Source: Microthyrium microscopicum | Lineage: Eukaryota | Length of the DNA: 64,000 nucleotides | Direction of reading: 5' to 3' | Assembly (NCBI GenBank): GCA_010405405.1 | Contig: MU004231.1 | Coordinates: 2,846,401-2,910,400 of the forward strand | In this document: piece after piece, positions 1-44,097 of the stretch | How positions within the stretch are numbered: the stretch's first letter is position 1 | Layout: every line of letters begins with the position of its first letter | Made by a program: the position numbers and the translations under genes | The notes under the pieces: model-generated | Told to the model about the DNA's origin: nothing | What the model saw: only the letters and a program-made list of their open reading frames with translations | The model's database searches: none

Positions 1-422
1 TAATATGTACGACGCATGGTGTACTTGTGGTATTGTAGGATCCTAACCAAACTCAAGACTGTGCATTGCGGCACAGCTCATGCCAATCCATTGGCTGAAG
101 CGGCTGAAACCTCATACAGGTCTGGATGCTTGATTTAGATTTTGCTTTGGTACGTACTTGTATATATAATATGCTGCCTTCAAGAACAGCGCTCAATAAT
201 GAGAATGTATGTTAGCAAAACTAAGAGTACTTTTTGAATGGAAACTTAACGACAATAAAAGAAAATTCTTACGGCGTTGGTAGTGGATGGGCCGAAATCT
301 CAAAATATAGGAACAATGTAAGGCAGGAAGCGAAGCGCCGGTGTATGCATGTTGGCGCTACACAGCCTGACTACAGTAATTACTGTGCCGTACAGAACTA
401 GCTTCAGATGCTAACGTGGCAT

Positions 423-574
423 TATTGTAATGAAGAATATGCTAAGGGATTAGATAATCGTAGGACCTAATTAGAGATAACATAATCCCCTAATTAGCGT
501 GTCCTAAAAACTATATTAGGCCCTTAGACTTCTATAGTAATTAACTATGCTTTATTTCTTATATTCTTATAATA
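423..574 (+). repeat. 5' LTR of copy 1
   Basis: Matches 10211-10362, 32231-32382 and 41682-41833 apart from C>T/G>A changes; shared core taattagcgtgtcctaaaaactatattaggccc. Confidence 0.95.
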
Positions 575-1239
575 TCTAATAGTAATAATTTAATTTAATT
601 AAGACTTTTAGATAATAAACCTCTTATAGGAATCTCTAGATTTATCTTATTGTTAATAATTACTTAGGATTAATATCTAGTAAAATATACTCTAAGAATA
701 TTATTCCTTAATTAGCTAGCCTTATTATAGCCTAATACTTAGTAACTATATATTAGAAAATAATTCTTAGAATTTATATATAATAATATTCCCTACTATA
801 ATATATTTTAAAAATATCTTAAATTATTTTTAATTTAAACTACTACTTTAAGGATTATTAAATATATTATAAGAATTATCTCTTTTATAATAATATTCTC
901 CTTATCTTTATTAACTTTTATTACGTTAATTATATAGCTATTAAATAAAATATAGAAACTTTTCCTTAGAAAATTCCTTAAGATAACGTTATAGAAACTT
1001 TACTATATAGATTAAAGCTAATAAGTAATAATATAAACTCTTAGCCTTAAGTTATCTTAGGAAATTAGATTAAGATCTTATCTATACTAAGAAAGTATAA
1101 AAATTTACCTTAGAATAATTTCTTAACTTTAAATTCTATTTAACTAACTTTAGTATAGAAACTTCTAAATCTTAAGACTCTTTTCTTACCTTACTAAGAT
1201 TATATTCTTTATTAAAACTATTACTTTCTCTTTATTAAA

Positions 1240-2958
1240 ATAAATAACTAGTATAATAATATTATAACCTAAACTATAAGATAAGATACTTAGTAGGTAT
1301 AATACTAAGCCTAGGTTACTAACCTAAGTTCTTAAAATAAGTAACTTACTCCTATATTATTAAATAATCTTTTTAGTATACTAAATCTTAGTCCTAACCT
1401 TATAACTTAGATTACTAATATTTAGTAATTAGGGCCCTAAGCCTTAAACTATTCTACTAGTATATATTAAGTTAATCTCTAGACTATTAACTATTCTCTT
1501 ACTAAACTATAAACTCTCTCTTAGGCTTAGAATTATATTCTTAAGGAACCTAACTACGTTCCTTAGGCCTATAACTAAACTTTCTAACGTAATAATAATA
1601 AAAATTAGTAGTCTATAAATAGGTCTATTCTTTTCTAGAAAGCGTTATTTTACTCTACTACTAATAAGTAAATTAAATAAGATTATAGCTCTAAATCTAT
1701 AGAAAATATCTAATATACTTAGTAGTAAAAAATAGTAAATTATATTACTAAATTAACCTCTTATCTTAACGTAAGTAAGTTTACCCTATATACTTAAGAT
1801 TACTAAGTAAATAAAATTAAGGCTTATACTTAGACTTAGGCTTTAACCTAAAAAACTTTATAAATAGGTATTACTTACCTAGACTTTATAGGAAAGCTAA
1901 ATAAAGAGTTAAATAAGACTATTAAATTACTTTTTTAAACTTTTAGTCCCTAAAAACTTATTAAGATAATAAGGAACGTTCCTTAAGAATAAAGATAATA
2001 TTTAACTAAGTTTAAGATATTTTTTAATAGTTTATTCTCTAAGAAACTAAGTAAGTATAATACTTAAGCTAAGAGCCTTTTTTATACCTTTAAGGCTAAT
2101 AAGAATATTCTCCTATTAAATTTTACTCTACCTAAATAGTAGAAAATTACTAAAGTTAAAGAATATCTTCTTATTAAGTAACGTCTTCTATAGGCTAACT
2201 TAGCTTAGTAATAGACTATAGAGGAGTTTAAGATACTTAAAAGTTTATCTTACTTCTTTATCTATTTTTAACCTATATTTAGTATTAAAAAAGATATACT
2301 TAAGGTTAGTATTTAGTAAAATTATATATTATAAGTTTTATTTACTAAGGAATTTATTTATTATCTTTATATTCTATAGACTTAAATAAATTCTATACTT
2401 ACTAATTATAAAATAAGTATTTAAATCTAAGGAGGCCTTAAAGAATAGGTTACTCTTAAAGCTAAGTATAGGTATAGTACTATTCCTAACCTTATAATTA
2501 ATATTTTAGCCTTTAAATAAGAAATTATTAAATATAATATAGACTCTTATAGAAATATACGTAATACTTATAATATTTATAGGCTAAAGTAGCTTAATAA
2601 AATCTCTTCTAGTTTTAAGAAAGATAAAGAGCTTACCCTAAATACTAGTTTTAAAGAATATCTTAAGAAAGTTAATAGTAAAAGCTATACTAATAATAAA
2701 CTTAAGTTAGATAATAAAAATTTAGAGTAGCTTAATATTATAAATAGCTATAGTTACTATTCTAAAGAATAACGTAATACTTAATACTCTAAGAAATTTA
2801 ACTCTAATAAGAAGTTATATTCTTTTTATAAAAAAGACTCTAAAGATAGAAAAGCTCTTATAGATAATTTTAAACTTAAGTATTAGAATTATAGTAAACT
2901 TAGTTACTACGCTATAAATTATAAAAAGCCTAACTAGTAATAATAGAATTTAAAAAAC
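1240..2958 (+). pseudogene. gag: gag relic with CCHC zinc knuckle
   Basis: 2881-2922 de-RIPs to approximately C-W-N-C-G-K-x-G-H-Y-A-x-D-C. The likely start (aaaATA from aaaATG) at 1240 is in the same frame; the start position is inferred. Confidence 0.75.
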
Positions 2959-5900
2959 TACTATTATTAAGAAATAAATAAGAATCTTCTAACTTAGAAC
3001 TAGAATACTTTACTTATCTATATAATAATTAATAAGCTTTCTTTAACTATATAAGTAAATATAGTAATACTCTTTTATATCTATCTATTTACTTATATTA
3101 TAAAAATTATTCTATTAAGACTATAGCTCTCTTAGACTTAGAAGCTAATTCTATTTATATTAGTTAAAAGATTATTAGGAAACTTAAAGCTTCTATAATA
3201 CCTATCCTAGAGAAAGAAGTTACTCTTATAAATAGCTATATAGTTATAACTTTCCTTAGGATTTACTTACCCTATTATATTAAGACTTTTTATAGCTACT
3301 TTAAGGCTTATATCCTAAATATTCTTAATCTTAATATTATTTTTAGACTTTTATAGTTCTAGTTATATAATTTATAAATTAATTAAATAATAGAGCAAAT
3401 TAAGCTTATAGAGTAATACTTAGAAGGCCTTTATATTTATAAGCTTACTATAAAATGCTAGATAGAGCCTCTTTAGAATAAGGGAAGCTACTTAAAATAA
3501 ATAGAGTAGTTTATAGCTAGCTTTCTTTATATAATCTTTTAAGTATTTTAAAATAAGGTAAAAAAAGTAAAGAATAAAGTTAAGAGCGTTCTTTAGCTAA
3601 TTTAAGGAATATAGGAATAGCCTAATATTTTCTTAATAACTAATAACTTTAATATTAATAAACTTGCTCTAGAAGATAAAAATATATAGAAACTTTTAAA
3701 TAATTACTATAAGTCCTTTTATTATACTTTTCCTAAACTTTTACTATACTCTAAGTTTAATTATAAAATCCTTATAAAAAACGTTCCTCTTTATAACTAG
3801 GCTTATTATTAGATATCTAGCCTATAACTAGAAAAGTAGAAAAAGTAGATTTAAGAACTACTTACTAAAGGACTTATTAAAGTCTTAAGAAGTCCTTAGG
3901 GTTTCCTTATCTTATTTATATTAAAGCTAAGAAGAAAATAGAAAATATATATTAACTACTATTTACTTAATATAGTTATATATAAAGATACTTATTCTTT
4001 ACTATAAATTAATAAGTATCTTAATACTATTAGTAGAGTAAGATTCTTCTTTAAGCTTAATCTTCTATTAGGCTATTAGTAAGTCTATATAGTAAAAAAA
4101 GATATTAAGAAAATAGTCTTTAATACTAAGTCTAAGAAGTATAAGTTCCTTATTATACCTTTTAGATTAATAAATATACTATTATTCTTCTAGCGTATAA
4201 TAAATACTCTTCTCTAGCTCTTTTTATTAATTTATATAGTTATTTACTTAGATAATATTATTATTTACTTAAATACTATAAAGAAATATTATAAGTATAT
4301 TACCTAGGTTCTAAAAATCCTCTAAGATAATAAGCTCTATGCTTATCCTAATAAATACGTCTTTAGGGTTAAGAAGATTAAATTCTATAGCTATAAAGTA
4401 GGAAATTAGTAAATTTAACCCTTATATAAAAAAACTACCTTAATTAAGTCCTAGCCTATATCTAAGAACGTATATAAAGTATATTAATTCCTTAATTTTA
4501 CCTTATACTATTAGTAATATATTAAGAACTTTACTAAGATTACTACCTTTATCTTTAACCTTTTAAAGGAAGCTAATCTAGATATTAAAAAAAAGAAGTA
4601 CTACTTTATTACTTAGACCTATTAATATACTATAGCTTTTAATAGAATTAAGACTCTATTAACCTTATTACCTATTTTAGTAATATATAATTTATAAAAG
4701 CTTATAAAGCTCTAAATAGATACTTTAAATTATATAATTAGTTATAAGCTAGTATAAAAAAATAACTAAAGTAAATAGTACCTAATTACTTTTAATAGCT
4801 ATAAGCTAAGTAGAGCTAAACTTAATTATTTAGTATATAAGAAAGAGCTTCTTATAGTTAAGAATATAATTAGGAGATACTAATACTACTTTCTAGAGAA
4901 GACTACTAAGATAATTATAGATTATAATAGCTTATAGTATATAAATATAATTAAGAATAATACTTAACGTATTACTTAATAAATTAAAGAGTTCTAAGAA
5001 TTTAATCTTATCTTTACGTATTATAAAGGTTCTTAAGTAATAGTTCCTAATACTTTTAGTTACTACTTAAACTTTTAAGAAAAATAGATTAATACTATTT
5101 AAGAAATAAAGCCTAAAGATAATAATAATAACTTATCTTCTAAGGCATAAGCTACTTTATTAGAACCTTTATAAGAGTAGAAAGAATAGAAAGCCTTCTA
5201 TATATAAGGCTTATAAAAAGTATTAAAAAAGAAAGATTATACTATCTCTACTAGTATATAGAAGAGGCTTTAAAAAAGCGTTCTTAATTATTTTTAAATT
5301 AACCTTAATAAAGATATTAAAAAGAAATATAAGTATTTATTCTTAGAGAAAGATTCTACTAAAGCTAAGATACTTACTAGTTTACTCTATATTTACTTCT
5401 TTTACTATTAAAACCTTATTAAGAAAGTATATAATTAGTATAAGTATTTATTATATATAGGCCTTACTAGTATTCTTAAACTAGAAGGTTAGTAGCTAGG
5501 AATAAAGAATAACTTCTAAAAATTTACTTAGTTCTATCCTATATATTAAGTTTAATAGATAAATTAAAGTAGACCTAAGTATAGGTTCTACTATTAAGTA
5601 TAAAACCTATAACTATTTAAGGCTTAAGGAATTAACTTAATTAATAAACTTTTATAGAGTCTCTTTAAGAATTAGTATATTATCTATATAATTAACTATG
5701 CTATAGAATAGCTTATTATAGAAATAGTACTAAATACTACTATTCTTATAGTTATAGAATTTATTTATAAGAAAATTATCTTAGAATATAGTTCTTCTTA
5801 ATTATTAACCTTAGATAATAAACCTTAGTTTATCTTAGACATAATTTTATCTTTATTATAATAAATAAAGACTAAGTACTACTTAATAGCCCTATATAAC

Positions 5901-7460
5901 CCCTAGTCTAATAAGAAGGTTAAGAGATTTAATAGCCTACTAGGTATATTTTTAACTAAGTTCTTAAAAGAAAAACTTATAGCTAGCTAAGATCTATACC
6001 TAGATTAAGTAGTTTATACTACTAGGATATAAGCTTATACTATATTAAGAATATCTTTCTTCTTCTTTATTTATAAGAAAGATTCTAAGGACTTTAAAAT
6101 AAGCTAGGTAAAGAAAAATAAATAAGCTAAATTAACTAGTATTATACCTCTTATCTACGTAATTATAAAAAATTACCTAAAGAAGGTTAAAACTACTAAG
6201 TAAGTCTATTATAACGCCTTATTAAAATAAGCTATAGCCTTAAACCTTATTAATAGTAATATAATTTTAAAAAAAGACTTTATTATTAAGTTCCCTATAG
6301 GTTCTTATATACTCCTTAAAAACTTAAATAAAACTAAATTCTAAGTAGCATAGTTTAGCCTTTATAAAGTCTTAAAGGCTTACTCCCTAAGAATATATAC
6401 TTTTAAGATACTTAATAAAAGAATACTTAAAAACCTTATCTATAGGAATTACCTTATATAGGTATATATATAAGAAGAAAATAAATACTATTACTAAAAC
6501 TAGCTATACCTTAAATATAAGTAATTAAGTAAAGATAACCTTAAAAGTATTCTAGATAAAGAGTATAAAAATAAAATAGATATATTTACTATAATTAAGA
6601 AAGACTAGCTTAATAGATTAAGAAACTTTTTAATAAAGTTAATTAATATTAAAAAGTCTAGTACTAGGAGATATTACTTAAGTCTATCTACTATTCCTCT
6701 TAACCTTATAAGAAAAGTTTAAAAAGCTAAAGTAAATATTTATAAATAAGAAAAGAAACATCTTATAGTAACTATTTATAACCTAAATAGTAACTTAAAG
6801 ACTCTTATAGTATTAAAATATATTCCTCTTAATCTAATTCTAGCTTTAGCGTAAAATAACTTAGAATAGATAAAGTAAATTATATAAGAAGTAGAATATT
6901 CTATAGTATTATAAAATCTAGTAAGGAAAAAAAATAATAATATTTTTATTCTCTTAAATTAAAGCTTAGTAAGGAAAGAAATCCTCTTAGCTATAATAAA
7001 TTAAGAATTAATCTTTATATTACTAGAATAATAAGAGTAAGGAGATAAATTATTAAAGCTAAGAAGCTATAATAAAATTACTATTTTAATTACTTATATA
7101 CCTATACTAGAGGTAATAAATCTATATAAATAAGTATCTAATCCTAAAGAAGACTATTAGGGTATTAACTCTTTATTACTAGATACTATAAAAGTAGAGG
7201 TTCTTCTTATAAATTATCCTAAACCTAGTCTACTATAAGAGATAAATATAACTAAAGGATTCTTATAGAATACTAATATATTTAGGCTAATTATAATACT
7301 TAGTAGTTTTATACGCCTTAGTACTAGCTTATAATATTTAGAATTAAGATAAAGATAATAAAAGGCTACTTCTAGATAAAAGATTATCTTATATATAAAT
7401 ATAAGTAAGGTACCTATAAGAAAAAAAAGAAAAATTAACCTTTTATTATCTCTTTTATAA
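2952..7460 (+). pseudogene. pol: pol relic (protease, RT, RNase H, integrase)
   Basis: De-RIPed motifs: ALLDSGA (~3126), SPWGFPILF...CIDY (~3890-3960), FSKLDLLSGYWQ (~4045), YLDD (4245), TDASD and NYPVHEKELL (RNase H, ~4715-4855), WGIDL, SDNGPQF, PQSNGKVERFN (integrase, ~5625-5935), WFGPY (~6350). End position approximate. Confidence 0.9.
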
Positions 7461-7714
7461 CTTTTCTTAATTATATTTATTTAAGAAAACTATTTATAAG
7501 AAATTACTTTTATTTATTATTAATTTAAGTAAACTATTATAAGTAATAATAACTAAAATTAAATCTTTAAATCTTCTTAGTAATCCTTAAGACTATTACT
7601 AAAGTTATTTAAATATAATAAGCTATCTCTAGATCTTTCTAGTAATCTTTAAGACTATTACTAAAAGCTTTCTTATAAAATATTTAATAGTAAGAAATAA
7701 GAAACTTAAATAAC

Positions 7715-9559
7715 CTAAATTCTTAAGCTAATCTACTACTTTTTAGTTTTAAAGTAACGTAAGCTTAATACTGCTTTTCTCTATTTCTTAAAAAATAACT
7801 AACTCTAAGAGTCTAGTTCTATTTCTTTCTCTATATAAGTAAGCTAATATACTTCTTCTTTACTAGAACTAAATATAGTTAGTAAAGCTTTTAAATAACC
7901 TAAAGATAGTGTAAATAATAAGCTATTAATAAAGTTATAAATAGAAGTAATAAGTAGTCTAGTAACTACCTATATTAATTACGTAGTATTTATACTTACC
8001 TTCTTTATTATAAATAAGTAATCTTATTTACTATTTAAGGCATAATTTATATAAGCCCTATTAAATATAAAATTACTTTTTATATTCTAGAAGACTATAT
8101 AATTATACTAAGTAATAACTTCTTTATCTAAGAGCTTAAGTATATAGTAGCGTTTATATTTATTATAACGCTAGTTAGGTTAGTAATCCTAAATATAAGC
8201 TATAGCTACTTATAGCTTATTACTACTAGATAGTAAGTTAGTTATTATTATAATAGCTAGCTTAGTCTAAGTAAGACTATACTTAATATAATACTTAAAT
8301 AATACTAGAATCTCTTAGAGGATTTTAACTCTTTAATTCTAAAGATCTTATAGAACCTAGATAAGCTTATTCTAAGTCTCTTTCTTATGTATTTATAGCT
8401 AGTAGTTTAAATAGATTAATTAACTATTTACTATAGTATAAGCTATATTATTAAGCAAATGCTTATAAGTCTACTTATTAAGCTTCTTTAAGAAAGCTAA
8501 ATAATAACCTAAACTAAGCTCTACCTTAATTTAAGGCTTAAGTAAAGTCTTATATATACTACTTTGCTTCTTTATAGGCTAATATAATAGTATCTTTACC
8601 TTTTCCTTACTTAAAGACTTAACGTACTCTAGTTTATTCTTAAAAATATTTAAGAAGCTAGTCTTACTAACTATATACTTATATACTTATAAAATATTAT
8701 AAGTTTACTTTAGCTTAAGTATTATATAATAGTAATAGCCTTAGCTATGCTCTTAGTTAATAACCTAATATAAGGTTATTTTAAAGTATACTAAGCTATT
8801 TTAAATATACTAGAATATATCTTTTACTACTTAAACCTAGGAATATATTATATCTTACTCTATATATATTTATATAGAATTAAGTAGTATAGTATTTAAG
8901 AAGTTATAGTCTAAACTAAAGGTATTAGTAATATAAGTACTAAATATTATAAATAGCTTAATCTTATTTTAATCTAGGAGACTTATTTCCTAAAGCTATT
9001 AAAGCGTTACCTATATTAGAGTATTCTTTTTAATAAAACTTACTTTTCGTTTAGGTATCTCTTAAGTAGCTTACTTATAAGCTAATTTCTACTAGTAAAA
9101 GAACTTACTCTTTAGAATTAAAGGATATTATCTAAATATAGGTAATTATTTATAAGATTATCTCGTCTTAGAATTAACGTTATAGTAGCTTATAGAAGCT
9201 TACTAGTAAGCCTTCTTAAGAAAAGAATTTAGATAGCTAATACTCTATTAATAACTAAATCTAGCTAGAGAAGGTAAAAAGTAGTTATTATTATTCCTTA
9301 TGCTTAAAAATCTTAATATATTATCTTATTAGCTATAAGCTTTAGTTAGAGAAGATAAACGTATAGGTATATTTATAAATAATTATAAACGTTCCTTAAA
9401 ATAAGGTTAAGTAACTAGACTTAGAGACTAAGTAATAAGACTTAGAGCTTATTATAAAGATTTAGCTTAATTATACTAAGCTTAAAAAACTTAAGAGTAA
9501 GTACTATGCTTTTTAGACGTCTTTAAAGATAATATAGTTAGCTTAGTATAAGGAGCTAT
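7715..9559 (-). pseudogene. RIP-mutated intronless antisense accessory ORF A (~615 codons), unknown function
   Basis: Minus strand begins agaATA GCT CCT (ATG GCT CCT, MAP...). One frame carries RIP-resistant codons (GAG, AAG, GAC, GCT, CGT, ATC, TTC) throughout, and in-frame TAA/TAG can be explained as CAA/CAG/TGG/CGA after RIP. The stop position is uncertain (7715 or 7706). Confidence 0.7.
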
Positions 9560-10201
9560 TCTAAAGAGCTCTTATAATTAAGAGCTTAAAAAGAATTAAG
9601 GATTAAAGAAAAGAAATATATAGAGCTACTTATACTTAATAATATTAAAAGTATAAAAGGAAATCTACTTTTACTAGCTTAAAGTATTATAGAAGTATAA
9701 TAAAAAAGAAGAAAAGAAGATAATAAATTATAAAGCTTTATAAATATAGGATTAAGCCTTTATCTTATATTTACTTAGACTAGTAATTACTATCTAATTC
9801 TTTATTACTACCTATATATTACTTTTTATAAACTTTACTCTTTAAGGCCTTAAAGTATAGGTTATATATATTCTTTACTAAATTAAGTAGTCTTAGTATA
9901 CCTATATAAATCTCTTATAATTTCTTAATTTACTATTACTAATAGCCCTTACGTAAATAAACTTTCTTAAAAGAATTAAGAACTATAAACGCTTAAGTAT
10001 TATTTATAATAGTTTAACCTAAATCTTAAGAAAAATCTTAAGAAGATAATTCTTTAGAAATTACTTTATAGCATAGCTAGGGTAATAGTCCTAAATCTTA
10101 AATAAAGATTCCTTATTAGTTATTATAATATTTTTTTTATTTTACTTATTTATTAAAGTTACGACTATAGGATTTATAATCTTAAGAGAGTTTATACTAG
10201 T

Positions 10202-10210
10202 AAAAGAAGA
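10202..10210 (+). other. Polypurine tract of copy 1
   Basis: aaaagaaga abuts the 3' LTR; copy 2 has aaggaagaa (41673-41681); most-G consensus AAGGGAGGA. Confidence 0.75.
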
Positions 10211-10362
10211 TATTATAATAAAGAATATACTAAGAGATTAGATAATTATAAGACCTAATTAGGGATAACATAATCCCTTAATTAGCGTGTCCTAAAAACT
10301 ATATTAGGCCCTTAGACTCCCGTAGTAATTAACCACGCTTTATTTCTCATATTCTTGCAATA
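10211..10362 (+). repeat. 3' LTR of copy 1
   Basis: Direct repeat of 423-574, followed by TSD GGCAT. Confidence 0.95.
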
Positions 10363-11396
10363 GGCATTCACCCCGGCACATCACTTCTCTAATACAACTC
10401 AACTTCATCCTGCTTAGCATGGTATTAAGTGCTTGTCACCTACTCTAGTATACCTGTTATGAATACCAGCGGATAGGTGATTGGAAGCAGCGATTCAATT
10501 GCTGCAAATTCATGATGTTGGGATCCGAAGTATGCGGCCCATCTAATGTGAAGTTCAGCGAGCCTGAAATTACGATGCGTCTCGTGGCCATTGGCATTGT
10601 CATTCGAGGAGCAAGTGCCTGGTACGTTACCAGTCACGACTCTGAGGACATCAAGAGCATGGAACATGTAGTTGCCATCATCTCAAGACAACTGGGGGTT
10701 TGGCCTCAAGAGCTAAGGGCTAGGATGGATGTATCAAAGGACTTTTGTAAGTGTAAGTTGTTCGATTGAGCATTCAACAAGATATCATTACAAGTGAGTA
10801 CTGTACAGCCATCAATCATCGCATCTCAGAAAAAATATCAAGATAATCATCAACAGTCCACCATTCAAGAATGAGAAGCAGAAACACGACTGACGGTACA
10901 GACAAGACTCCAAAACAGACTTTCTAATCTTTCCATTTTGGCTAGGAGGACTATACATGAAGATCTAACCTGATCTGTGGTTGTTGACCCTCTCCAATAT
11001 CCAAAATGCAATCTGCAAGCAGCTGAACGACAGAGACCTGTATTGCGCCAACAGGTCCTTCATGACAGTTGTGGGTTCAGATGACTTGAAGTCTCTCAAC
11101 TCAGACAATATACAATAAACAAGAAGCTGCTCCAAGCATGACTGCTGTCTCCAAAGGGGTATCCCTGTGACTAAACGCGACAAGCCTTCCACACCAGGCT
11201 CGAAGAATAAAAAGCAACACCAGGTTCGCGGCGAACAGGACTGGAGTCCCTTTCGCCCCTAAATATGTACCTGCATGGTAAAGAAGACTCATGTCCATCC
11301 GGGGATATGCCAGAAAAAAATAAAGTTACAAGAAGATGTGACCGCTAAGTGATGACAGGAAAGAATGCTCGTTCTGATTTGAAAACCGGTCCACGC

Positions 11397-30476: not shown

Positions 30477-32230
30477 AAGTGAAGACTTGGTACGAATTAA
30501 GTCTGGAATTTTGAGGCAGTCGGGGAAGAGTGAAACACAAACTCTTGATATCTAGAATGAAGCCAAAGTGAGATTCAGATCTGCGCTATATGTGAGATAG
30601 TGCTAGTGAATGGAATGACCCGCCTTCAAATCGAGATGGCGCCTCTACTTCGATAGCGGGCGCCCACAAGGGAACTAATGAATAACAGATCACTTCGAAC
30701 GTGCCTACATGTCACAAAAAAACATGACAAGAGGAAACAAGAAGAAAGAAATCAGACCCCAGCTGGGTTTCTACCTTCTCAATTTGGTACCTTTGTAAGA
30801 TCCTCATTTCTCTCTCCACCAAGAAGCATCACCAAGAGTGATGCAAGCTTGGTTTACCCTTGGACAGCTCAGCCACCCGAGCAGTTGCTTGTTACTGTAT
30901 AAATGTCCCTGATAAAACAGTTTTGGTGGTCCGATTATGGACTTGATAAATCATTGATTGGGCAACAGAGATCCTGGAGGAGATATCGGACAGCGTTCTA
31001 CTAACCTGTTCAATTGGAACGCTTGAGCCCGATCCACGCCTATCTAATCCAGCCCGGCTATCGAGCGATTTGAATCTACATAGTGATGAGACCTGGCAGT
31101 TCATAGGCTGACTTGCAGCAGCAGTCACAATCCATGTCGGAGCTTGGCTGAGCCGAAGCAGACCGCTCAGTCGTGAGTTCTACCTGCTGGTGGAACAACT
31201 ATCGTCGTTGTTGGCTCCTGCATAGTGAATAGTGTGCAACCAACGTCTGTTCGGTCTGCGGGAGTGCAGATCTCCGATTTTTAGCTTAATCATTCGCAGC
31301 TTTGAACTTAGAGGAAAGCAGGACTACGACTAACAGTACTGAGCGCTCCACATAATGCTCTTTTGCTTCGACACCCGATCTAGTCTTGTGACTTGGTACC
31401 TCTAATCATTAATGATACGATCAGTCACAGATGGACGATTGACCTGTTTTACCTGTATAGTTCGTGAAATAGCCATCGCTTACTTGCTTGGAGTTTTGGA
31501 CAATCTCAAAATGAGAAGCTCCAATGGTTTAGGACTCTTCGACCATAAACAGAGCAGGACGTTTCCTGTTCATGAAGGTACCGAGCAGATTACACTGTGA
31601 GTCTGGCACCTCTATGAAGTGCACGTCACCCTTGCGAGTGTTTTCTGATTCCATGGAAGCCTCGTTGTTGGACGTCATCTGGGTTGACCAACCATTCGAC
31701 GCTTCTATGGCGAATTAGCGAAAGAATGGTGGCACCGCGTTCGCGCTAAAACTTACCGTACTTTGGGATTTCGGCCCTTCCCATGGCTACTTGAAGTTCG
31801 GCCTGCGTTACAAACTGATAATTCGAGTTTACAGTAAAACCTCCTCAATTCCAGGTGGTGACTACTAGGCGGTAGAGATATACATTTTGATGAATTGTAC
31901 GAGCAGATGCACCACGACGATCTCCCAATCCGAGAAAGTCTCTTTGGCATCACAGACACTTCCATTATCCTTTACATATCGTAGAACCAATCATCGGGCG
32001 CGCGATGGGGTTGGTGATGTTCAGCCTTGAGGTTCTGGAGAAAGAGCTTGGAGCCATTTCAGGACGTAGCCGACGGCGTGGCACGCTTAGCGTCCTGCGG
32101 CAAGAACCGCCTAGCTACTAATTCAACCAATCTATTGGTTACTATGCAGAACTAGTGATGCTTTTCCCAGATTTCCTGGAAATTTCACGCGAGAAACCTG
32201 CTACGTGGGAACGGTAAGATCGCTCGCCAT

Positions 32231-32382
32231 TGTTGTGATGAAGAACATGCCAAGGGATTAGATAATCATAGGACCTAATTAGGGATGACATAATCTCCTA
32301 ATTAGCGTGTCCTAAAAACTATATTAGGCCCTTAAATTCTTGTAGTAATTAACCACGCTTTATTTCTTATATTCTTATAATA
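32231..32382 (+). repeat. 5' LTR of copy 2
   Basis: 152-bp repeat beginning TGTTG. Confidence 0.95.
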
Positions 32383-33046
32383 TTTAGTAGTAATAATTTA
32401 ATTTAATTAGGACCTCTAGATAACGAACCTCTTATAAGAATTCCTAGATTTATCTTATTATTAATAATTACTTAGGATTAATATTTAGTAAGATATACTC
32501 TAAGAATACTATCTTCTAATTAGCTAGCCTTATTATAGCTTAATACCTAGTAACTATATATTAGAAAATAATTCTTAGGATTTATATATAATAATATTCT
32601 TTACTATAATATATCCTAAAAATATTTTAAATTATCTTTAATTTAAACTACTACTTTAAGAATTATTAAATATATTATAAGAATTATTTCTCTTATAATA
32701 ATACTCTCTTTATCCTTACTAACCTTTGCTACGTTAATTATATAGCTATTAGACGAAATATAGGAACTTCTTCTTAGAAAATTCCTTAAGATAATGTTAT
32801 AGGAACTTCACTATATAAATTAAAGCTAATAAGTAATAACGTAGACTCTTAGCCTTAAGTTATTTTAGGAAATTAGATTAAGATCTTATCTATACTAAGG
32901 AAGTATAAAAATCTACCTTAGAATAATTTCCTAATTCTAGATTTTGTCTAATTAACTTTAGTATAGAAACTTCTAGACCTTAAGACTTTTCTTCTATCTT
33001 ACTAAGATTATACTCTTTATTAAAACTATTACCTCTTTTTACTAAA

Positions 33047-36000
33047 ATAAATAACTAGTATAATAATATTATAGCCTAAGCTATAGAATAAAATACCTAG
33101 TAAGTATAATACTAAGCCTAAGTTACTAACTTAGGTTTCTAAGATAAGTAACTTACTTCTATATTACTAAATAACCTTTCTAACGTACTAAATCTTAGTC
33201 TTAACCTTATAACTTAGGTTACTAATATTTAGTAATTAGGGCCTTAAGCCCTAAACTATTTTACTAATATATATTAAGTTAATCTCTAGACTATTAACTA
33301 TTCTTCTACTAAATTATAAACTTCCTTTTAAGCTTAGAACTATACTCCTAGGGAACCTAACTATATTTCCTAGGCCTATAATTAAACTTTCTAACGTAAT
33401 AATAATAAAAATTAGTAGTTTGTAAATAGGCCTATTCCTTTTTAGAAAGCGTTATTTTACTCTACTACTAATAGGTAAAGTAAATAAGATTATAGCCTTA
33501 AACCTATAGAGGACGTCTAATATATTTAGTAATAAGAAATAGTAAATTATATTACTAAATTAACTTCTTACCTTAATATAAGTAAGTTTACTTTACGTAC
33601 TTAAGATTATTAAGTAAATAAAATTAAGGCTTATGCCTAGACTTAGGCTTTAACCTAAGAAACTTTATAAATAGGTATTACTTACCTAAACCTTATAGGA
33701 AAGCTAAGTAAGGAGTTAGATAAGACTATTAAATTACTCTTCTAAACTTTTAGTCCTTAAAAACTTATTAAGATAATAAGGGATGTTCCTTAGGAATAGA
33801 GATAATATTTAACTAAGTTTAAGATGCTTCTTAATAGTTTATTCTCTAGGAAACTAAGTAAGTATAATGCCTAGGCTAAGAGCCTCCTTTATATCTTTAA
33901 GGCTAGTAAGGATATTCTTCTATTAGATTCTACCTTATCTAAGTAGTAGAAAATTACTAAGGTTAAAGAATATCTTCCTATTAAGTAATATTTCTTATAA
34001 GCTAACTTAGCCTAGTAATAGGCTATAGAGAAGTTTAAGATACTTAAAAGTTTATCTTACTTTTTTACCTACTTTTAACCTATATTTAGTATTAAAAAAG
34101 ATATGCTTAAAGTTAATATTTAGTAGAATTATATATTATAGGTTTTATTTACTAAGGAATTTATCTATTATCTTTATATCTTATAGACTTAAATAAATCT
34201 TATACTTACTAATTATAAAATAAGTATCTAAATCTAAGGAGGCCTTAAAGAATAAGTTACTCTTAAAGCTAAGTATAGACATAGTGCTATTCTTAATCCT
34301 ATAGTTAATATTTTAGCCTTTAAATAAGAGATTATTAAATATAATATAGACTTTTATAGGAATACGTATAATACTTATAATGCTTATAAGTTAGGGTAGC
34401 TTAATAAAATCTTTTTTAATTTTAAAAAAGATAAAGAGCCTACCCTAGATACTAGTTTTAAAGAATATCTTAAGGAAGTTAATAATAAAAGCTATACTAA
34501 TAATAAGCTTAAGTTAAATAATAAAAATTTAGGGTAGCTTAATGCTATAAATAGTTATAATTACTATTCTAGAGAATAATATAATACTCTACGCTCTAAG
34601 AAATTTAACTCTAATAAAAAGTTATAGCCTTTTTATAAAAAGGACTCTAAAAGTAGGAAAGCTTCTATAGATAATTTTAAACTTAAGTACTAGAATTATA
34701 GTAAACTTAGCTACTACGCTATAGATTATAAAAAGCTTAATTAATAATAATAGGGTTTAAAAAACTATTATTACTAAGAGATAAATAGGAATCTTCTAGC
34801 TTAGAACTAGAATACCTTATTTATCTATATAGTAATTAATAAGCTTTCCTTAACTATATAAGTAGATATAGTAATACTCTCTTATATCTATCTATTTACT
34901 TATATTATAAAAATTATTCTATTAAGATTATAGCTCTCTTAGACTTAGGAGCTAACTCTATTTACGTTAGTTAAAAGATTATTAAGAAACTTAAAGCTCT
35001 TATAATACCTATCCTAGAGAAAAAAGTTATTCTTATAAATATCTATATAATTATAACTTTCTTTAGAATTTACTTACTTTATTATATTAGGACCTTTTAT
35101 AGTTACTTTAAGGCTTATATCTTAAATATTCTTAATCTTAATATTATTTTTAGACTCTTATAGTTCTAGTTATATAATCCCTAGATTAATTAGATAATAG
35201 AGTAAATTAAGCTTATAAAATAACGCTTAGGGGGCCTATATACTTATAAGCTTATTATAAGACGCTAAGTAGAGCCTCTCTAGAATAAGAAGAGCTACTT
35301 AGAATAAATAGAGTAGTTTATAGCTAGCTTTCTTTATATAATTTTTTAAGTACTTTAGAATAGAGTAAAAAGAGTAGAAGATAAAGTTAAGAATATTCTT
35401 TAGCTAATTTATAAAATATAAGAATAGCTTAATATCTTCTTAATAACTAATGACCTTAATATTAATAAACTTACTTTAGAAGATAAAAGTATATAGAAAC
35501 TTTTAAATAATTACTATAAATTCTTTTGTTATACCCTTCTTAAATTCTTCTTATATTCTAAGTTTAATTATAAAATCCTTATAAAGAATGCTCCTCTTTA
35601 TAACTAGGCTTATTATTAGATATTTAGCCTATAACTAAAAGAGTAAAAAAAGTAGATTTAAGAACTACTTACTAAAGGACTTATTAAAGTCTTAAGAAGT
35701 CCTTAGAGTTTCCTTATCCTATTTATACTAAAGCTAAGAGAAAAATAAAGAATATATATTAATTACTATCTACTTAATATAGTTACGCATAAAGATACTT
35801 ATTTTTTACTATAAATTAATAAGTATCTTAATACTATTAGTAGAGTAAGATTCTTCTCTAAGCTTAATCTTCTATTAGGCTATTAGTAAGTCTATATAGT
35901 AGAAAAAGATATTAAGAAAATAGCCTTTAATACTAAGTCTAAGAAGTATAAGTTCCTTATTATATTTTTTAAATTAATAAATACGCTATTATTCTTCTAG

Positions 36001-39000
36001 CGTATAATAAATATACTTCTCTAGCTTTTCCTATTAACCTACGTAGTTATTTACTTAGATAATATTATTATTTACTTAAATACTATAGAGAAATATTATA
36101 AGTATATTACTTAGGTTCTAAAGATCTTCTAAGATAATAAGCTCTATACTTATCCTAATAAATACGTCTTTAGGATTAAGAAGATTAAATTCTATAGCTA
36201 TAAAGTAAAAGGTTAGTAAATCTAACCTTTATATAAAAAGACTACCTTAATTAAGTCCTAGTCTATACCTAAGAACGTATATAAAGTACGTTAATTTCTT
36301 AGTCTTACCTTATACTATTAGTAATATATTAAGAACTTTACTAAGATTGCTACTCTTATCTTTAATCTCTTAAAAGAGGCTAACCTAAATATTAAGAAAA
36401 AGAAGCACTACCCTATTACTTAAACCTATTAATATACTATAGCCTTTAATAGAATTAAGACTCTATTAACTTTATTATCTATCTTAGTAGTATATAACTT
36501 ATAAAAGCTTATAAAGCTCTAAATAGATACTTTAGATTATATAATTAATTATAAGCTAGTATAAAAAGATAACTAGGATAAATAGTACTTAGTTACTTTT
36601 AATAGCTATAAGCTAAGTAAAGCTAAACTTAACTATCTAGTATATAAAAAAAAGCTTCTTATAGTTAAGAATATAATTAAGAGATACTAATACTACTTCT
36701 TAGAGAAGACTACTAAAGTAATTATAAATTATAATAGCTTATAGTATATAAATATAATTAAGAATAATACCTAACGTATTACTTAATAGATTAAAGAATT
36801 CTAAGAATTTAATCTTATCTTTACGTATTATAAGGATTTCTAAGTAGTAGTTTCTAATACTCTTAATCGCTACTTAAACTTTTAAAAAGAATAGATTAAT
36901 ACTATTTAGGAAATAGAGCTTAAAGATAATAATAATAACTTATCTTTTAAGGTATAAGCTACCTTATTAGAACTCTTATAAGAGTAAAAAGAATAAAAAG
37001 CCTTTTATATATAAAGCTTATAAGAAGCGTTAGAAAAGAAAGATTATATTATCCTTATTAGCATATAGAAGAGGCTCTAAAAAAGCATTCTTAATTATTT
37101 TTAGATTAATCCTAATAGAGATATTAGAAAAAAACGTAGATATCTATTCTTAAAGAAAGATTTTACTAAAGCTAAGATATTTACTAATTTACTCTATATT
37201 TATCTCCTTTATTACTAAGACCTTATTAAGAAAGTATATAATTAGTATAGATACTTATTATATATAAGCTTTACTAGTATTTTTAAACTAAAAGGTTAGT
37301 AGCTAGAAATAGAGGACAACTTTTAGAAATTTACCTAGTTTTATTCTATATATTAAGTTTAATAAATAGATTAAAGTAGGCCTAAGTATAGGTCCTACTA
37401 TTAAGTACGAAACTTATAGCTATTTAAGGCTTAGGAAATTAACCTAATTAGTAAACTTCTATAGAGTCTCTTTAGGAACTAGTATATTATTTATATAATT
37501 AACTATACTATAGAATAGCCTATTATAAAAGTAGTACTAAATACTACTACTCTTATAGTTATAGAATTTATTTATAGAAAAATTATTTTAGAATATAGTC
37601 CTTTTTAATTATTAACCTTAGATAATAGACTTTAGTTTATCTTAGACGTAATTTTATTCTTATTATAATAGATAAAGATTAAGCACTACTTAATAGCTCT
37701 ATATAACCTCTAGTCTAATAAGAAGATTAAGAAATTTAATAGCCTACTAGGTATATTTCTAACTAAGTTCCTAGAAGGAAAACTTATAGCTAGCTAGGAT
37801 CTATATTTAGATTAAGTAGTTTATATTACTAGGGTATAAGCTTATACTATATTAAGAATATCTTCCTTTTTCTTTATCTATAGAAGAGATTCTAAGGACT
37901 TTAAAATAGGCTAAGTAAAAAAAAATAAATAAGCTAAATTAACTAGTACTATACCTCTTATCTACGTAATTACTAAAAATTACCTAGAGAAGATTAGAAC
38001 TACTAAGTAAGTCTATTATAATACTTTATTAAAATAAGCTATAGCTTTAAACTTTATTAATAGTAATATAATTTTAAAAAAGGACTCTATTATTAAGTTC
38101 TCTATAAGTTCTTATATACTTCTTAAAAACTTAAATAAAACTAAGTTCTAGGTAGTATAGTTTAGCCTTTATAAAGTCTTAAAGGCCTACTCTTTAGGAA
38201 TATACGCTTTTAAGATACTTAATAAAAGAGTACTTAGAAACTTTATCTATAAGAATTGCCTTATATAGGTATATATATAAAAAGAAAATAAATACTATTA
38301 CTAGAATTAGCTATATTTTAAACATAAGTAACTAAGTAAGAATAACCTTAAAGGCGTTCTAGACGAAGAGTATAAAAGTAAAATAAATATATCTACTATA
38401 ACTAAGAAAGACTAGCTTAATAGATTAAGAAACCTTTTAGTAGAGTTAATTAATATTAAGAGGTCTAGTACTAGGAGATATTACCTAGGTCTACCTACTA
38501 TTCTTCTTAACCTTATAAGAAAAGTTTAAGAAGCTAAAGTAGGTATTTATAAATAAGAAAAAAAACGCTTTATAGTAACTATCTATAACTTAAGTAATAA
38601 CTTAGAAACTCTTATAGCGTTAGAATATATTCCTCTTAGCCTAATTCTAGCTTTAGCATAAAATAATCTAGAGTAGATAGAGTAAATTATATAAAAGGTA
38701 GAATATTCTATAATATTATAAAATCTAGTAAGGAAGAAGAATAATAATATTTTTACTCTTTTAAATTAAAGCTTAGTAAAGGAGGAAATCTTCCTAGCTA
38801 TAATAGAATAAGAATTAATCTTTATATTATTAGAATAATAAAAGTAAAGAGATAAATTATTAAGGCTAAGGAGCTATAATAGGATTACTACCTTAATTAC
38901 CTATATATCTATATTAAAAGTAATAAATCTATATAAATAAGTATCTAATCCTAGAGAGGACTATTAAGGCATTAACTCTTTATTACTAAATACTATAAAA

Positions 39001-39267
39001 GTAGAGGTTCTTCCTATAGATTATCCTAAACCTAGTCTACTATAAGAGATAGATATAACTAAAGGATTCTTATAGAATACTAATATATTTAGGCTAACTA
39101 TAACGCTTAATAGTTTTATATATCTTAGTACTAGCCTATAATATTTAAGATTAGAATAAAGATAGTAAAAGGCTACTCCTAAATAAGAGATTATTCTACG
39201 TATAGATATAGGTAAGGTACCTATAAAAAAGAAAAGAAAAATTAACCTTTTATTATCTCTTTTATAA
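33047..39267 (+). pseudogene. gag-pol relic of copy 2
   Basis: Same motifs as copy 1: zinc knuckle at 34688, ALLDSGA ~34933, YLDD ~36052, integrase ~37430-37740. Confidence 0.9.
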
Positions 39268-39528
39268 TCTTTCCTAATTATATTTATTTAAAAAATTGTT
39301 TATAAGAAATTACTTTTATTTTATTATTAATTTAAGTAAACTATTATAAGCTATAATAAATAAGCTAAATCCTTAGATCTCTCTAGTAATCCCTAGAACT
39401 ATTACTAAGGATATTTAAATATAATAAGTTATCTTTAGATTTCTCTAGTAATCTCTAGGACTATTACTAAAGTTTACCCTTTAATAAATTAATAAGATAA
39501 GACTAAGAAATATAGGAATATTAAAGAA

Positions 39529-41037
39529 CTATTACTATACGTCTTACTATAATCTTATAGAGTCTTATCTTTTTAAGGCCTATGCTTATTCCTTCTTCTT
39601 ATTCTTTAAGAGCTTTACCTAGGCTACTAATTTTATAGTAATTTTAGCTATTCTAAAGTACTCCTTATTAATTAGTAACTTAGGAATGCTAGGAGAAGTA
39701 GATAATTAAATAATAGTAGAATTTAAACCTTTTTTTTAACTCTATAGTAAGATATAGTCTTTATAGAATAAATAAGTTTAAAGTTTACTATTAAACATAT
39801 AATTAGTATAAGCGTTATTTAGGAAAGGAGCTTTATTTCTTTTATATATACTAATAATATATTTATTATAAGTATAGATTTATAATAAGTTCTAATAACG
39901 CGTATAAGCCTTTTCTTACTTTACTTTTATAGTTATATATATTATAGAAGTCTTTAAATAAGAAGATAATAATAGAATATTCTTAGTTAAGAGTAAAGTA
40001 CTTAGATACTAATAGATCTCTTACTAAGGTATAAGCGTTAAGATATTAGTAACCTCTACTAGAATACTATTATTCTTCTAATAATATTTTAAAAGCTAGA
40101 AGAGTAATTCTTAAGTTACTTTCTCTTTTAAGAGTTTAACGTCCTTAAAGGTAAGATACTAGTTAGAGTTTAAGAACTTAACCTATTTTTTTTAATAATC
40201 TATACTTTTTTTAGTAGTTAGTCTTATTATATTTATATAACTACGCGTAGTAGATAGCTTTTTTAGAATTACTATTAAGCTTACTTTACGTTTATACTTT
40301 TAGAGTCTTACTTACTTTAACTCTTACTTATATTTATTACGTATAGTTTTAGTAGTTTTAATATACTTATAAGTATTTTCTAGGCTCTTATTAATAAAGA
40401 CTAGTTAATCTTTATAACCTTTTACTTCTTACTTTATAAACTCTTAGTACTTTATTAAGTTTACTAACTCCTTTTTAGTAACCTTATACTTATAAGTTAA
40501 AACTATTATAGAAGTTTTAATATAGAAATTGCGTACTTATAATAGGTTAAAGGGTATAGGAGTTCTATACTTAGCCTTATAATTACTTTCTAATAAGTCT
40601 AGACTTCTTATTATACGCGCTAATTCCTAAATAAGAGTATTATTAATAGAAATTATTTAATAAGATATTTTTAGCATTATAAAAAGTACTAAAAACTTAT
40701 AGTAAGAATAAAAGACGTTATTAGAAGTATTACTAAAGAGATCTTCCTTCTTCTTATTAGCTTCTAGGATTTAGTTAATTAGCTAAAAACTTATAGAATA
40801 GGAATAATACTTAATTAAGTTATAAACTAATTCTTTAAGAGTTTCTTTACGACTTAGTAAAAGGGATAGAACCTTAGCCTTAACCTTTTTATATAAATAG
40901 GTTATATAAGGTAAGAGCTATTTTTGCTTATTTTCCTTTAAAGCGTTAATAATTTTTTAATAAGCGTTTAAATAAGAAGAGTTTCCTTTATTAGACTTTT
41001 AAGAGCTACCCTTTTTTAGAGTATCTAGAGGAGCTAT
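39529..41037 (-). pseudogene. RIP-mutated intronless antisense accessory ORF B (~503 codons), unknown function
   Basis: Minus strand aaaATA GCT CCT CTA GAT ACT CTA AAA AAG GGT AGC TCT (about MAPPDTPKKGSS). One frame keeps RIP-resistant codons (e.g. AAG AAG AAG GAA GAT, GAG ATC, GCG CGT) over 1.5 kb. Stop position approximate. Confidence 0.72.
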
Positions 41038-41681
41038 TTTAAAAGCCTTAAGAAGTATAAATAGTAAGTTTTAAGTAGGGAGAATATATAAAGTTACTTA
41101 TATTTAATAATATTAGAAGTATAAGAGGGAATCTACTTCTACTAGCTTAAAAATATTATAGAAGTATAATAAAAAAGAAAAAGAGAAGATAATAAATTAT
41201 AAAGCTTTATAGATATAGGATTAGGCTCCTATCCCTATATTTACTTAGATTAGTAATTACTACCTAGTTCTTTATTACTACCTATACGTTACTTTTTATA
41301 AATTTTATCTTTTAAGGCCTTAATATATAAGTTATATATATCTCTTACTAGATTAAGTAGCCTTAGTATATCTATATAAACTTCTTATAATTCCTTAATA
41401 TATTATTACTAATAGCTCTTATATAGATAAATCTTCCTAAAAGGATTAAGGAGCTATAAACGTCTAAGTATTATTTATAATAATTTAACTAAGATCTTAA
41501 GGAAAGTTCTTAGGGAATAATATCTTAAAGGTTACTATCTAGTATAACTAAAGCAATAAACCTAATTCCTAGGTAGAGGTTCCTTATTAGTTATTATAAT
41601 ATTCTTTTTATTTTATTTATTTATTAAAGCTATAGTTATAGGATTTATAATCTTAGGAAAGTTTACGCTAGTAAGGAAGAA

Positions 41682-41833
41682 TATTATAATAAAGAATATG
41701 CTAAGGGATTAGATAATTATAGGACCTAATTAGGGATAATATAATCCTCTAATTAGCGTGTCCTAAAAACTATATTAGGCCCTTGGACTCCCGTAGTAAT
41801 TAACCACGCTTTATTTCTCATATTCTTGCAACA
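41682..41833 (+). repeat. 3' LTR of copy 2
   Basis: Ends TTGCAACA; preceded by the PPT and followed by the TSD. Confidence 0.95.
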
Positions 41834-44097
41834 GCCATGTGGCCGCAACGTGGAGCTTCTTCGTCCCATCTGCATTGTCTAAACCATCACCTTTCACGCG
41901 AAGTAATCGACACATTACTCCATAATGCCCAAATCTAATAACTTTTATCTAGCATTGCCCCGTCACCGCATAAAGGACGGACCTATCATGTTTACTCCGT
42001 ATGGTAACCCGACATCGGTGCGTGGTCGTGGTCGTGGTCGCTGCTTGTCAGACGCCCATCCTCTAGATTTATGTTTCTTTTAAGCGCGGATTGTCTTGAA
42101 TTGTGATTGTGCATAAAGCCTCAAAGCGATACAGCAATGATGGGGGCTGAGCGGTTGAAGTTGCCCTTCTAAAATATTTCCCCTTCGTCCATACCGGCAA
42201 CAAAAATGCCACACCAACATCATTAACTGGATAGGCATTTCCTCCTGAGCGATCAGAACATTCTGCAGTAGGCCGAGAATTCATGGCATCAACGGCTCAA
42301 CCTCCGCCCATCTGCAACTTGTAAGAACTGCATTTTAGTTGCTGCATCACCTAGTGTTTGTACAAAAAGCATGTCTATATTACCATCTTACATTCACTGC
42401 TGGATAGAAAATGCGTGAGTCATGATTGGCAATCTCTTAAGCAGGACTGCCCTTTTTCATCCCTTGCCTTATAGTATTCTGTATTCATGAGCAACGTATC
42501 TTACTGATACCTTGCGGGGAAGCAAAGAGTAAAAGCAAGACAACTTTCGACACTTCAAGATATTTGATTGTTCTGCACGCATTTGAAGCTCTGACCGTAC
42601 TCGGTGTGCAGGTTGGTGTTGATTTTAATGCGGACGCTGCGTCCATGCTCACAGCCCAGCAAAAAGAAATAACATGTCGCACAAGAACATTTTAAGACAG
42701 CCAAAAACAGTCCAACTCGTTGGATCTTGCAATGTTTTGTTATATCTTCCTTACTTAGCAGGTTTTCTGGCTGTAGAGTATTGTCAGGAAGTGAACAATT
42801 TCAAGGTTTTCGATCTCAGCACTTTGTTGTCATCAACTATGCTGATTATCAAAACGAGATTTCTACCTCTCTCATGATGCATTCATTCCTGTATTTCTTT
42901 CAGCTTCCCGACCATTTGGTTGACCACATGGCTCACACGTGTGCGTGCGCCAACATTAGGGACTCAGCTTGTATTCGCTTATGCAGCGCCCAGCCGCCCC
43001 GTGACACCAATACTAATGCATGTCTCAACAAATTCACGAAGTCGGTTTTGCCTTTTTATCATGCCCACAATATACCTGCACAATATACATGGTATCCTTT
43101 GTCTGTCAAGTTTCCCGGACATCTTTACCTACTGGCATATCTGATTGTTTCCTCCTTACCCCTTTGGTAATGCATACGATGATAGCTTAAGGTAGTTGAA
43201 TCGATCTCGTAGGTGCCAGCGTAGCTCACTGTGTCTCTCTATCATTTGCTTCTTTTTCTGGTGCAACCACATGGTTCGCCAGGGTTTAACTTAGGCTTTC
43301 ATTAGCTTCTTTGCTTGTTTATTTGATCAAAAATCTTCCCATAAGGAAACATCCTTTAGGATGTCTTTGAATTTGCTCGAAGCGAGCATACAGGTAGTAC
43401 TTGGCTGTCGGTTGTTATACCAGTGTACCCTCCAACTTAATCATCATGTTCTTCGAAAAGATGTTCTGACTGGCCAGCTGTCATCGAAGGCAACTACAAA
43501 TACGCTAAATTGATTCTAGGCTGAATGATATCAATGGAAACGGTGAACAGGAGGGAGCGAATTTGTCTGGAAGGCACACTTTCACTGTAGTTGGTGACCT
43601 CTTATCCTCCTCATTTACTGGCCTCTTTATGTGTCAACATGTGCCTGGAGTAGTTAAGAGCAGGTAGAACGCACTCCTGTCTCTATGTGTGCCTAGGTCA
43701 TGCTGAATCTGCGAAGTCAGACAATAGCTATGGCCGTAGTGATAGGGTCTGTGATAAGCGTCTATTTACTTTTTGTACCTTCAAGAACTCGAAACGCTCA
43801 CGTGCTTTCGATAAACAGGGTAGAAATATAATGTAGAGTATGTAATGTAAGGCGTTGAGGGGAGAAGTTAAGTCTCAGCCTGATTGCAGCCTTGTCTGTG
43901 GCGCATTTGTGGCTTAGAGCGGCTTTGCCCCGCGTCTAGCCGATCTCGGAATCATGAGCGAGGCATTTGTCAGGTTCACTAGTGCTCTCAACCACTTCGA
44001 CAACTTTTTGATTGCTAGAACTTCCTCGGAGACATATCACATACCTAATCCTCCCATACCTACTCTCATCCTGCCTTCCCTCCCCGAGTACGCCAGA

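Follow-up and report, generated by a model that had tools for sequence, protein, structure and literature searches.

Two Forms of a Ty3/Gypsy-Type Retrotransposon With Unrelated DNA Behind pol in the Filamentous Ascomycete Microthyrium microscopicum

Results

Two Copies of One Element

The 64,000-nt stretch of Microthyrium microscopicum DNA analysed here (assembly GCA_010405405.1, contig MU004231.1, positions 2,846,401 to 2,910,400; hereafter the window) contains two full-length copies of one long terminal repeat (LTR) retrotransposon of probable Ty3/Gypsy type. The copies share LTRs, leader, gag and pol and a block in front of the 3′ LTR, and they carry unrelated segments behind pol. Both lie in the same orientation, each in an AT-rich island with a GC content of ~0.20–0.30 versus 0.43–0.57 in the remaining window. 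A self-BLASTN of the window aligned 420–7665 with 32228–39471 (89.5% over 7247 columns) and 9615–10367 with 41083–41838 (85.9% over 758 columns). The element limits are 423–10362 for copy 1 (9.9 kb) and 32231–41833 for copy 2 (9.6 kb). The BLAST match overruns these ends by a few bases because the target-site duplications (TSDs), GGCAT and GCCAT, are alike.

Copy 1 has 152-bp LTRs at 423–574 and 10211–10362, found by BLASTN against each other and by an alignment of all four LTRs. The same alignment placed the LTRs of copy 2 at 32231–32382 (152 bp) and 41682–41833. All four are on the plus strand. They differ by transitions alone; no transversion occurs in the 148 bp compared. The LTR ends are of the TG...CA type if repeat-induced point mutation (RIP) is allowed for, and read TGTTG...GCAACA in the least mutated copies. 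Alignment of the element ends gave identical 5-bp TSDs on both sides: GGCAT at 418–422 and 10363–10367 for copy 1, and GCCAT at 32226–32230 and 41834–41838 for copy 2. Directly upstream of the 3′ LTR, both copies have a purine run of the polypurine tract (PPT) type, at 10199–10210 and 41670–41681. A primer binding site was not recognisable after the 5′ LTR in the sequence left by RIP, inspected without a tRNA comparison. For fungal Gypsy elements, lengths of 9.9 and 9.6 kb seem long and LTRs of 152 bp short. With two 152-bp LTRs and a perfect 5-bp TSD of its own, each copy was inserted separately as a whole unit with the variable segment already inside.

RIP has changed both elements throughout. 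The TpA/ApT ratio is 1.69–1.90 across both elements and both variable segments and 0.70–0.71 in the flanks. The ratio (CpA+TpG)/(ApC+GpT) is 0.04–0.08 across elements and segments and 1.31–1.32 in the flanks. The variable segments, A in copy 1 and B in copy 2, have values of 1.86 and 1.90 for the first index and of 0.06 and 0.04 for the second. Both indices shift sharply where the elements end. Across the 7240 aligned columns of the 5′ block, the copies differ by 743 transitions and 14 transversions, and 4 columns are gaps. This bears out a preliminary description of the window, according to which the copies differ there almost only by C/T and G/A. Most of the remaining differences between the copies involve CpT/ApG (218 and 225 of 623 scored), CpA being already exhausted. 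RIP inactivated both copies after insertion.

Family Assignment and Shared Coding Regions

Coding potential was assessed by counting stops in six frames against dinucleotide-preserving shuffles. Behind the 5′ LTR, a long leader of ~600 bp (575–1171) precedes the first coding-like frame; the leader itself has no stop-depleted frame. The degraded region 1172–2900 on the plus strand has a stop-depleted frame (z = −4.2) and is named gag-like by its position only; it had no Pfam match. The degraded pol follows at 2970–7300 on the plus strand (z = −4.4). Mirror antisense frames are depleted as well, with z = −5.0 in the gag region and z = −4.0 in pol, so the stop test shows coding periodicity and not strand. 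Leader, gag and pol of copy 2 (32383–39471, plus strand) are collinear with those of copy 1.

For Pfam and protein searches of the pol frame, stops were read as X. The frame matched RT_RNaseH_2 (4.2e-13) and RT_RNaseH (2.7e-11) at nt 4632–5000. In six frames of both whole elements, two RNase H families were the only Pfam matches at E ≤ 0.01, found in the pol frame of each copy. The pol translation retrieved 12 proteins from a 5.8-billion-cluster database, with a best E-value of 1.7e-29. RVT_1 (PF00078) was present in all 12, Ty3-type RNase H domains in 11 and integrase domains in most of them. BLASTP to the best match covered residues 280–697 with 26% identity (E = 2e-34), including a YLDD-type box; this part comprises the reverse transcriptase (~3807–4530) and RNase H. 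The matched Gypsy polyprotein carries PF00078, PF17919, PF17917, PF17921 and PF00665, and reverse transcriptase and RNase H are collinear in both. A weak C-terminal match to integrase lies downstream of RNase H (E = 0.034), and the order is consistent with reverse transcriptase, RNase H and integrase. On the reverse transcriptase and RNase H matches of the pol frame, the element is classified as a Ty3/Gypsy LTR retrotransposon of a filamentous ascomycete. The pol search also served as a positive control: a conserved protein is still detectable despite RIP.

The pol frame probably stays coding to about 7300–7480, and its stop depletion persists through 6750–7483. An apparent antisense open reading frame (ORF) in the shared part at 6400–7483, containing 361 codons and 19 stops, was not accepted as a gene of its own because the mirror antisense frames of gag and pol are equally depleted, the plus strand is A-rich and the pol frame is still depleted there. 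It most likely mirrors the C-terminal part of pol. A word-indexed protein search with its minus frame gave 0 matches.

Unrelated Segments Behind pol

Likeness between the copies ends behind pol. Segment A of copy 1 (7666–9614) has 1949 bp, segment B of copy 2 (39472–41082) 1611 bp. On the left, the breakpoint is sharp (7665/39471). On the right, a weak, gapped and diverged match sets in at ~9550/41028 and the alignment becomes clean from 9615/41083, which leaves this boundary fuzzy. The breakpoints given in the preliminary description, ~7665/~39472 and ~9615/~41083, thus hold, while the feature start at 7543 lies ~120 bp to the left of the real breakpoint. The slot had been placed between pol and the PPT. 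Its position behind pol stands; the segment does not adjoin the PPT, since a shared 3′ internal block of 596 bp (9615–10210, plus strand) lies between them. The corresponding block of copy 2 is 41083–41681 on the plus strand. Between the copies, this block is more diverged than the 5′ block.

The two segments had been called unalignable, and BLASTN, purine/pyrimidine (R/Y) coding on both strands and protein comparison agree. R/Y coding collapses the RIP differences, and A and B still do not align: the best local score was 33 forward and 31 for the reverse complement, which is the level of 30 shuffles (33.1 ± 3.2, maximum 39), while a homologous control stretch scored 1930. Compared as protein in 36 frame pairs, the best scores were 140 and 128 with null maxima of 128–136; the best score is within the null range. 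An R/Y-coded comparison of A and B with all other parts of the window, in both orientations, gave top scores of 43 and 46 with means of ~33.5 (sd 3–4), and nothing convincing emerged.

A nested transposable element (TE) with its own termini was also considered. Around A and B there is no terminal inverted repeat (TIR), LTR, direct repeat or TSD, and only short AT-rich chance matches were seen. No remnant of B was found beside A, nor of A beside B.

The left breakpoint coincides with a repeat structure shared by both copies. Two palindromic repeat units with 62-bp spacing occupy 7567–7665 of copy 1 on the plus strand (cores 7578–7602 and 7640–7664) and end exactly at the breakpoint. In copy 2, the pair lies at 39369–39471 with cores at 39384–39408 and 39446–39470. 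The core does not occur elsewhere in the window in an R/Y motif scan without mismatch, and metagenomes scanned for the core as an IUPAC pattern gave 0 matches. In copy 2, the less mutated one, the repeat pair folds as a hairpin of ~90 nt with −26.8 kcal/mol (z = −3.0), the 3′ foot of which coincides with the breakpoint. If stable, such a hairpin might make the reverse transcriptase pause and switch templates. Alternatively, it could be a terminator between sense and antisense units.

Divergence Next to the Segments

Transversions were counted because transitions are dominated by RIP. From 423 to 7484, there are 11 transversions in 7062 bp (0.16%) and 1 gap column. The flanks of the segment (7485–7665 and 9615–10210) hold 12 transversions in 777 bp (1.54%) and 6 gap columns. 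The transversion density of the flanks is thus ~10 times that of the remaining 7 kb (Fisher p = 4e-7). The left flank contributes 3 transversions in 181 bp. In the 3′ internal block, 596 bp hold 9 transversions, and 3 columns are gaps; the 5′ leader has 0 transversions in 596 bp (p = 0.004). From ~7485 to ~10100, the history of the two copies is a different and deeper one than in the remaining element. Such a pattern is what recombination between diverged lineages leaves behind.

Of the 9 transversions in the 3′ shared block, 7 fall into 10018–10099. An 80-bp skip at this position was seen in some contigs of other copies described below (two in run X1, one in X3 and one in X5). A second variable spot of the family therefore lies just upstream of the PPT.

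Other Copies in Short-Read Contigs

Contigs from public runs were placed on 1–11000 at 80% likeness. Runs X1, X3 and X4 are of the same organism and one sample. Run X5 is of a second organism from another study and has low depth. In X1, up to 26 distinct variant contigs cover single sites of the shared part and up to 8 cover single sites within A. These counts give a sounder lower bound than depth does: at least 26 other copies for the shared part and at least 8 for A. The summed contig depth of X1 is 98–109 in the single-copy flanks, 3225–5445 in bins of 735–7707 and 1145–1562 in five bins inside A. By depth and variant-contig counts in A versus the shared part, A is carried by roughly one quarter to one third of the copies of the family. 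Beyond 7665, three X1 contigs that match the element up to this base run on in a 30-nt consensus, which is identical to the first 30 nt of B save for two transitions. Both segment types exist in several transposed copies. An empty form joining 7665 to 9615 was absent among the nine joints listed.

In X5, 133 contigs were placed on 1–11000, 16 of them at ≥ 99%. A 268-bp contig is identical to copy 1 (4382–4649). RIP makes each copy unique, so this identity suggests that the X5 source is a very close relative sharing the insertion by descent, or that material was shared. The left part of A is covered in X5, with little or no cover of 8809–9542; the uncovered part is no finding. Joints of 4697 to 8050 and of 4708 to 8286, with sides of ~24 letters at 80% likeness, were left uninterpreted.

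Coding Content of the Segments

Segment B probably carries a degraded antisense ORF of ~490 codons with many RIP-type stops (39590–41070, minus strand). The minus frame, 537 codons over the whole of B, has 41 stops versus 68.2 ± 7.6 in shuffles (z = −3.6), a value reached by 0.7% of the shuffles. The minus strand was taken because of the stronger depletion and the A-richness (A > T) there, as on the sense strands of gag and pol. Segment A has no depleted frame; 37% of the shuffles reach its minimum. None of the 12 frames of the two segments matched a Pfam family at E ≤ 5. The B minus frame had 0 matches by phmmer in 1.84 billion representatives, and one of the six A frames, on the minus strand, had 0 matches in a word-indexed protein database. 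Two further approaches contributed little. Stops common to both copies were used as a RIP filter, and with 266–310 shared per frame they were uninformative; a 3-periodic R/Y Markov model trained on pol was too weak and blind to strand. The preliminary terms cargo and accessory ORF are therefore not upheld, as a coding-like frame is present in B only and neither segment has a homologue in these searches.

Genomic Setting

Both elements are isolated AT-rich islands in gene-dense, un-RIPped DNA (10400–32200 and 41900–64000). Neighbouring ORFs match ordinary fungal families: Bys1, a RecQ-type helicase, DRE2, DUF829, diphosphomevalonate decarboxylase, cytochrome c heme lyase, kinesin, a Methyltransf_8 (PF05148) methyltransferase and a calpain-type protease. 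The copies are 21.9 kb apart in the same orientation, with several genes between them, including the Bys1-domain and RecQ-like ORFs. Unequal recombination between the copies could delete or duplicate this interval, though a RIP divergence of ~10% would hinder it. The TSDs of the two independent insertions are very similar (GGCAT and GCCAT). Such likeness would be a hint of target-site preference by the integrase, for which two sites are too small a sample.

Discussion

The window and the contigs are best read as one Gypsy family with at least two recombinant subfamilies, which have LTRs, leader, gag, pol and a 0.6-kb block before the 3′ LTR in common and carry unrelated DNA behind pol. We give this reading a probability of about 0.7. 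Its descriptive core, one element family with two non-homologous versions behind pol, the same left breakpoint and several genomic copies of each, agrees with the preliminary description.

In the proposed course of events, two diverged relatives of one Gypsy family, or an element and a foreign RNA or DNA, would have recombined once. The first crossover would lie at or just behind the palindromic hairpin pair (7665/39471) and the second within 9550–10100. The recombinant would have kept the near-identical backbone of LTR, gag and pol and gained a different region behind pol. Both forms may then have been amplified by retrotransposition before RIP destroyed all copies. Such amplification would account for perfect TSDs as well as for the several copies of either form. 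As to the route, we tentatively infer template switching of the reverse transcriptase between co-packaged RNAs, which the hairpin may have favoured. Template switching had been proposed before; as the specific route it is one of several possible. The mosaic divergence fits recombination between diverged lineages. The flanks of the segment, diverged and still homologous in sequence, favour a homologous donor.

Several observations weigh against this reading. The raised transversion density could partly reflect weaker constraint on non-coding sequence. Weaker constraint alone is unlikely, since the presumably non-coding 5′ leader has no transversions. Summed contig depth is not a copy number, and the ratios differ between libraries: element to flank is ~33–56 in X1, 7–14 in X3 and 0.6–2.5 in X4. 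Among the contig pieces listed, none bridges the junctions of copy 1, so the assembly at 7665 and 9615 is without direct confirmation. The hairpin is significant in copy 2 only (copy 1: z = −0.1). The strand of the B frame is undecided by the stop test, as gag and pol also give mirror antisense frames. Finally, the whole comparison rests on two full copies.

A capture at the DNA level is an unlikely explanation that still deserves consideration. The region behind pol of a master copy would have been replaced by unrelated DNA of the genome or of another TE and then retrotransposed. Nested insertion with deletion, illegitimate recombination or gene conversion could achieve this without template switching, and A would be tolerated junk. 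That A has neither a coding signal nor a homologue is in line with such an origin. So is the fuzzy right boundary with small indels, as often seen in illegitimate joins. Nested insertion plus illegitimate recombination is an accepted alternative way for recombinant elements to form (PMC4079200). The segments themselves speak against capture: neither has left a remnant beside the other, and neither is bordered by terminal repeats or a TSD. Raised transversions on both sides of the segment better fit a homologous, diverged donor than a foreign insertion.

The preliminary description went further and saw a swappable cassette with allelic versions. For such a true modular slot, the hairpin pair would be a hot spot at which the family repeatedly exchanges unrelated accessory modules. 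The breakpoints are identical in copy 2 and the three further contigs, they fall precisely at the 3′ foot of the palindromic pair, which is conserved between the copies, and a frame resembling an ORF is present in B. A single ancestral event of the B-type copies would produce identical breakpoints just as well. Two types only were seen, A has no ORF, and there is no evidence for more than one exchange. One exchange or capture followed by amplification explains both forms, and the terms swappable and allelic are not supported. Repeated exchange at a hot spot is quite improbable. Its strongest version, in which the palindromic pair is a dedicated site of recombination or template switching for repeated swaps of unrelated modules of 1.6–2 kb, at least one of them encoding an orphan antisense protein, is a long shot. 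If true, a genuine system for the exchange of accessory modules would exist in a fungal retrotransposon.

A mis-joining of repeats, to which the shortness of the short-read contigs and the unbridged junctions of copy 1 would leave room, or a hyper-divergence of homologous segments in situ is extremely improbable, given the matching LTRs and perfect TSDs of both copies, the B junction and several A variants reproduced by independent contigs, the abrupt end of likeness at 7665 after 181 bp with 3 transversions and no decay, and the missing A/B signal in R/Y coding, which strips RIP noise.

If the reading of two recombinant subfamilies holds, they are a clean example of mosaic evolution of LTR retrotransposons in a RIP-active filamentous fungus, with a non-homologous region behind pol as their only difference and a breakpoint at a hairpin. 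For TE annotation, the forms matter because consensus libraries would otherwise merge or mis-split them. The case may also point to an orphan antisense gene. R/Y coding, which leaves only transversions, recovers family history and breakpoints from sequence that RIP has made unreadable.

Comparison With Known Elements

The family and its two forms were not found described in the literature searched. Read as a claim that precedent is lacking, the earlier remark that no allelic, exchangeable version is known to be described in ascomycetes was too strong, in view of brtn in Botrytis (PMC8365987), mosaic Ty1 (PMC7055915) and crapaud (PMC10787394).

In Saccharomyces cerevisiae, mosaic Ty1, a recombinant of canonical Ty1 and Ty1′, has LTRs and pol near-identical to Ty1′ and a different gag, with breakpoints almost exactly at the gag ORF (PMC7055915). 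As in the present family, copies of an ascomycete LTR retrotransposon are near-identical save for one module bounded by breakpoints. Mosaic Ty1 belongs to Ty1/Copia and exchanges homologous, diverged versions of gag, whereas the present element is a Ty3/Gypsy-type element with the variable region behind pol, no detectable homology between its versions and copies killed by RIP.

The crapaud element of the RIP-active Podospora anserina complex has subfamilies split by a delimited variable part, and recombinant copies were observed (PMC10787394). The likeness extends to the host, a RIP-active filamentous ascomycete, to a sharply delimited variable part beside conserved parts and to the recombinants. 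The variable part of crapaud is the U3 half of the LTR, whereas it is an internal segment behind pol in the present case.

Boty-like (BcGypsy1) elements of Botrytis cinerea have an antisense gene, brtn, and one consensus class is without the start of brtn and keeps a putative ORF (PMC8365987). Like the present family with its probable ORF in B, they are ascomycete Gypsy elements with an extra antisense ORF, and the region of the extra ORF varies between classes. The present LTRs differ in being only 152 bp long, and the B frame was deduced statistically from RIP-degraded sequence; brtn was compared by its description.

Outside the fungi, plant Gypsy elements of the Retand/Tat lineage have a long region from pol to the 3′ LTR with antisense ORFs (PMC11963269), and LTR elements of bdelloid rotifers have a diverse ORF3 and a modular gain of unrelated ORFs (PMC5408684). 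Shared features are the long, variable stretch that separates pol from the 3′ LTR and the tandem repeats in it; extra or antisense ORFs, probable in B, and a modular gain of unrelated ORFs would be further ones. The ORFs of those elements have domains such as TRP28, env-like, GDSL and DEDDy, whereas no recognisable domain was found here and one version looks non-coding.

Grass centromeric retrotransposons form proliferating recombinant subgroups, for which co-packaging with template switching, or nested insertion with illegitimate recombination, was proposed (PMC4079200). In Triticeae, complex elements were made by template switching (PMC1950507). In these plants, as proposed for the present family, recombination between elements yields new subfamilies that proliferate. 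The parents of the plant elements were identified by phylogeny, unlike in the present fungal case. Taken together, the M. microscopicum family combines known features and is a further example of them, without a new class of mechanism.

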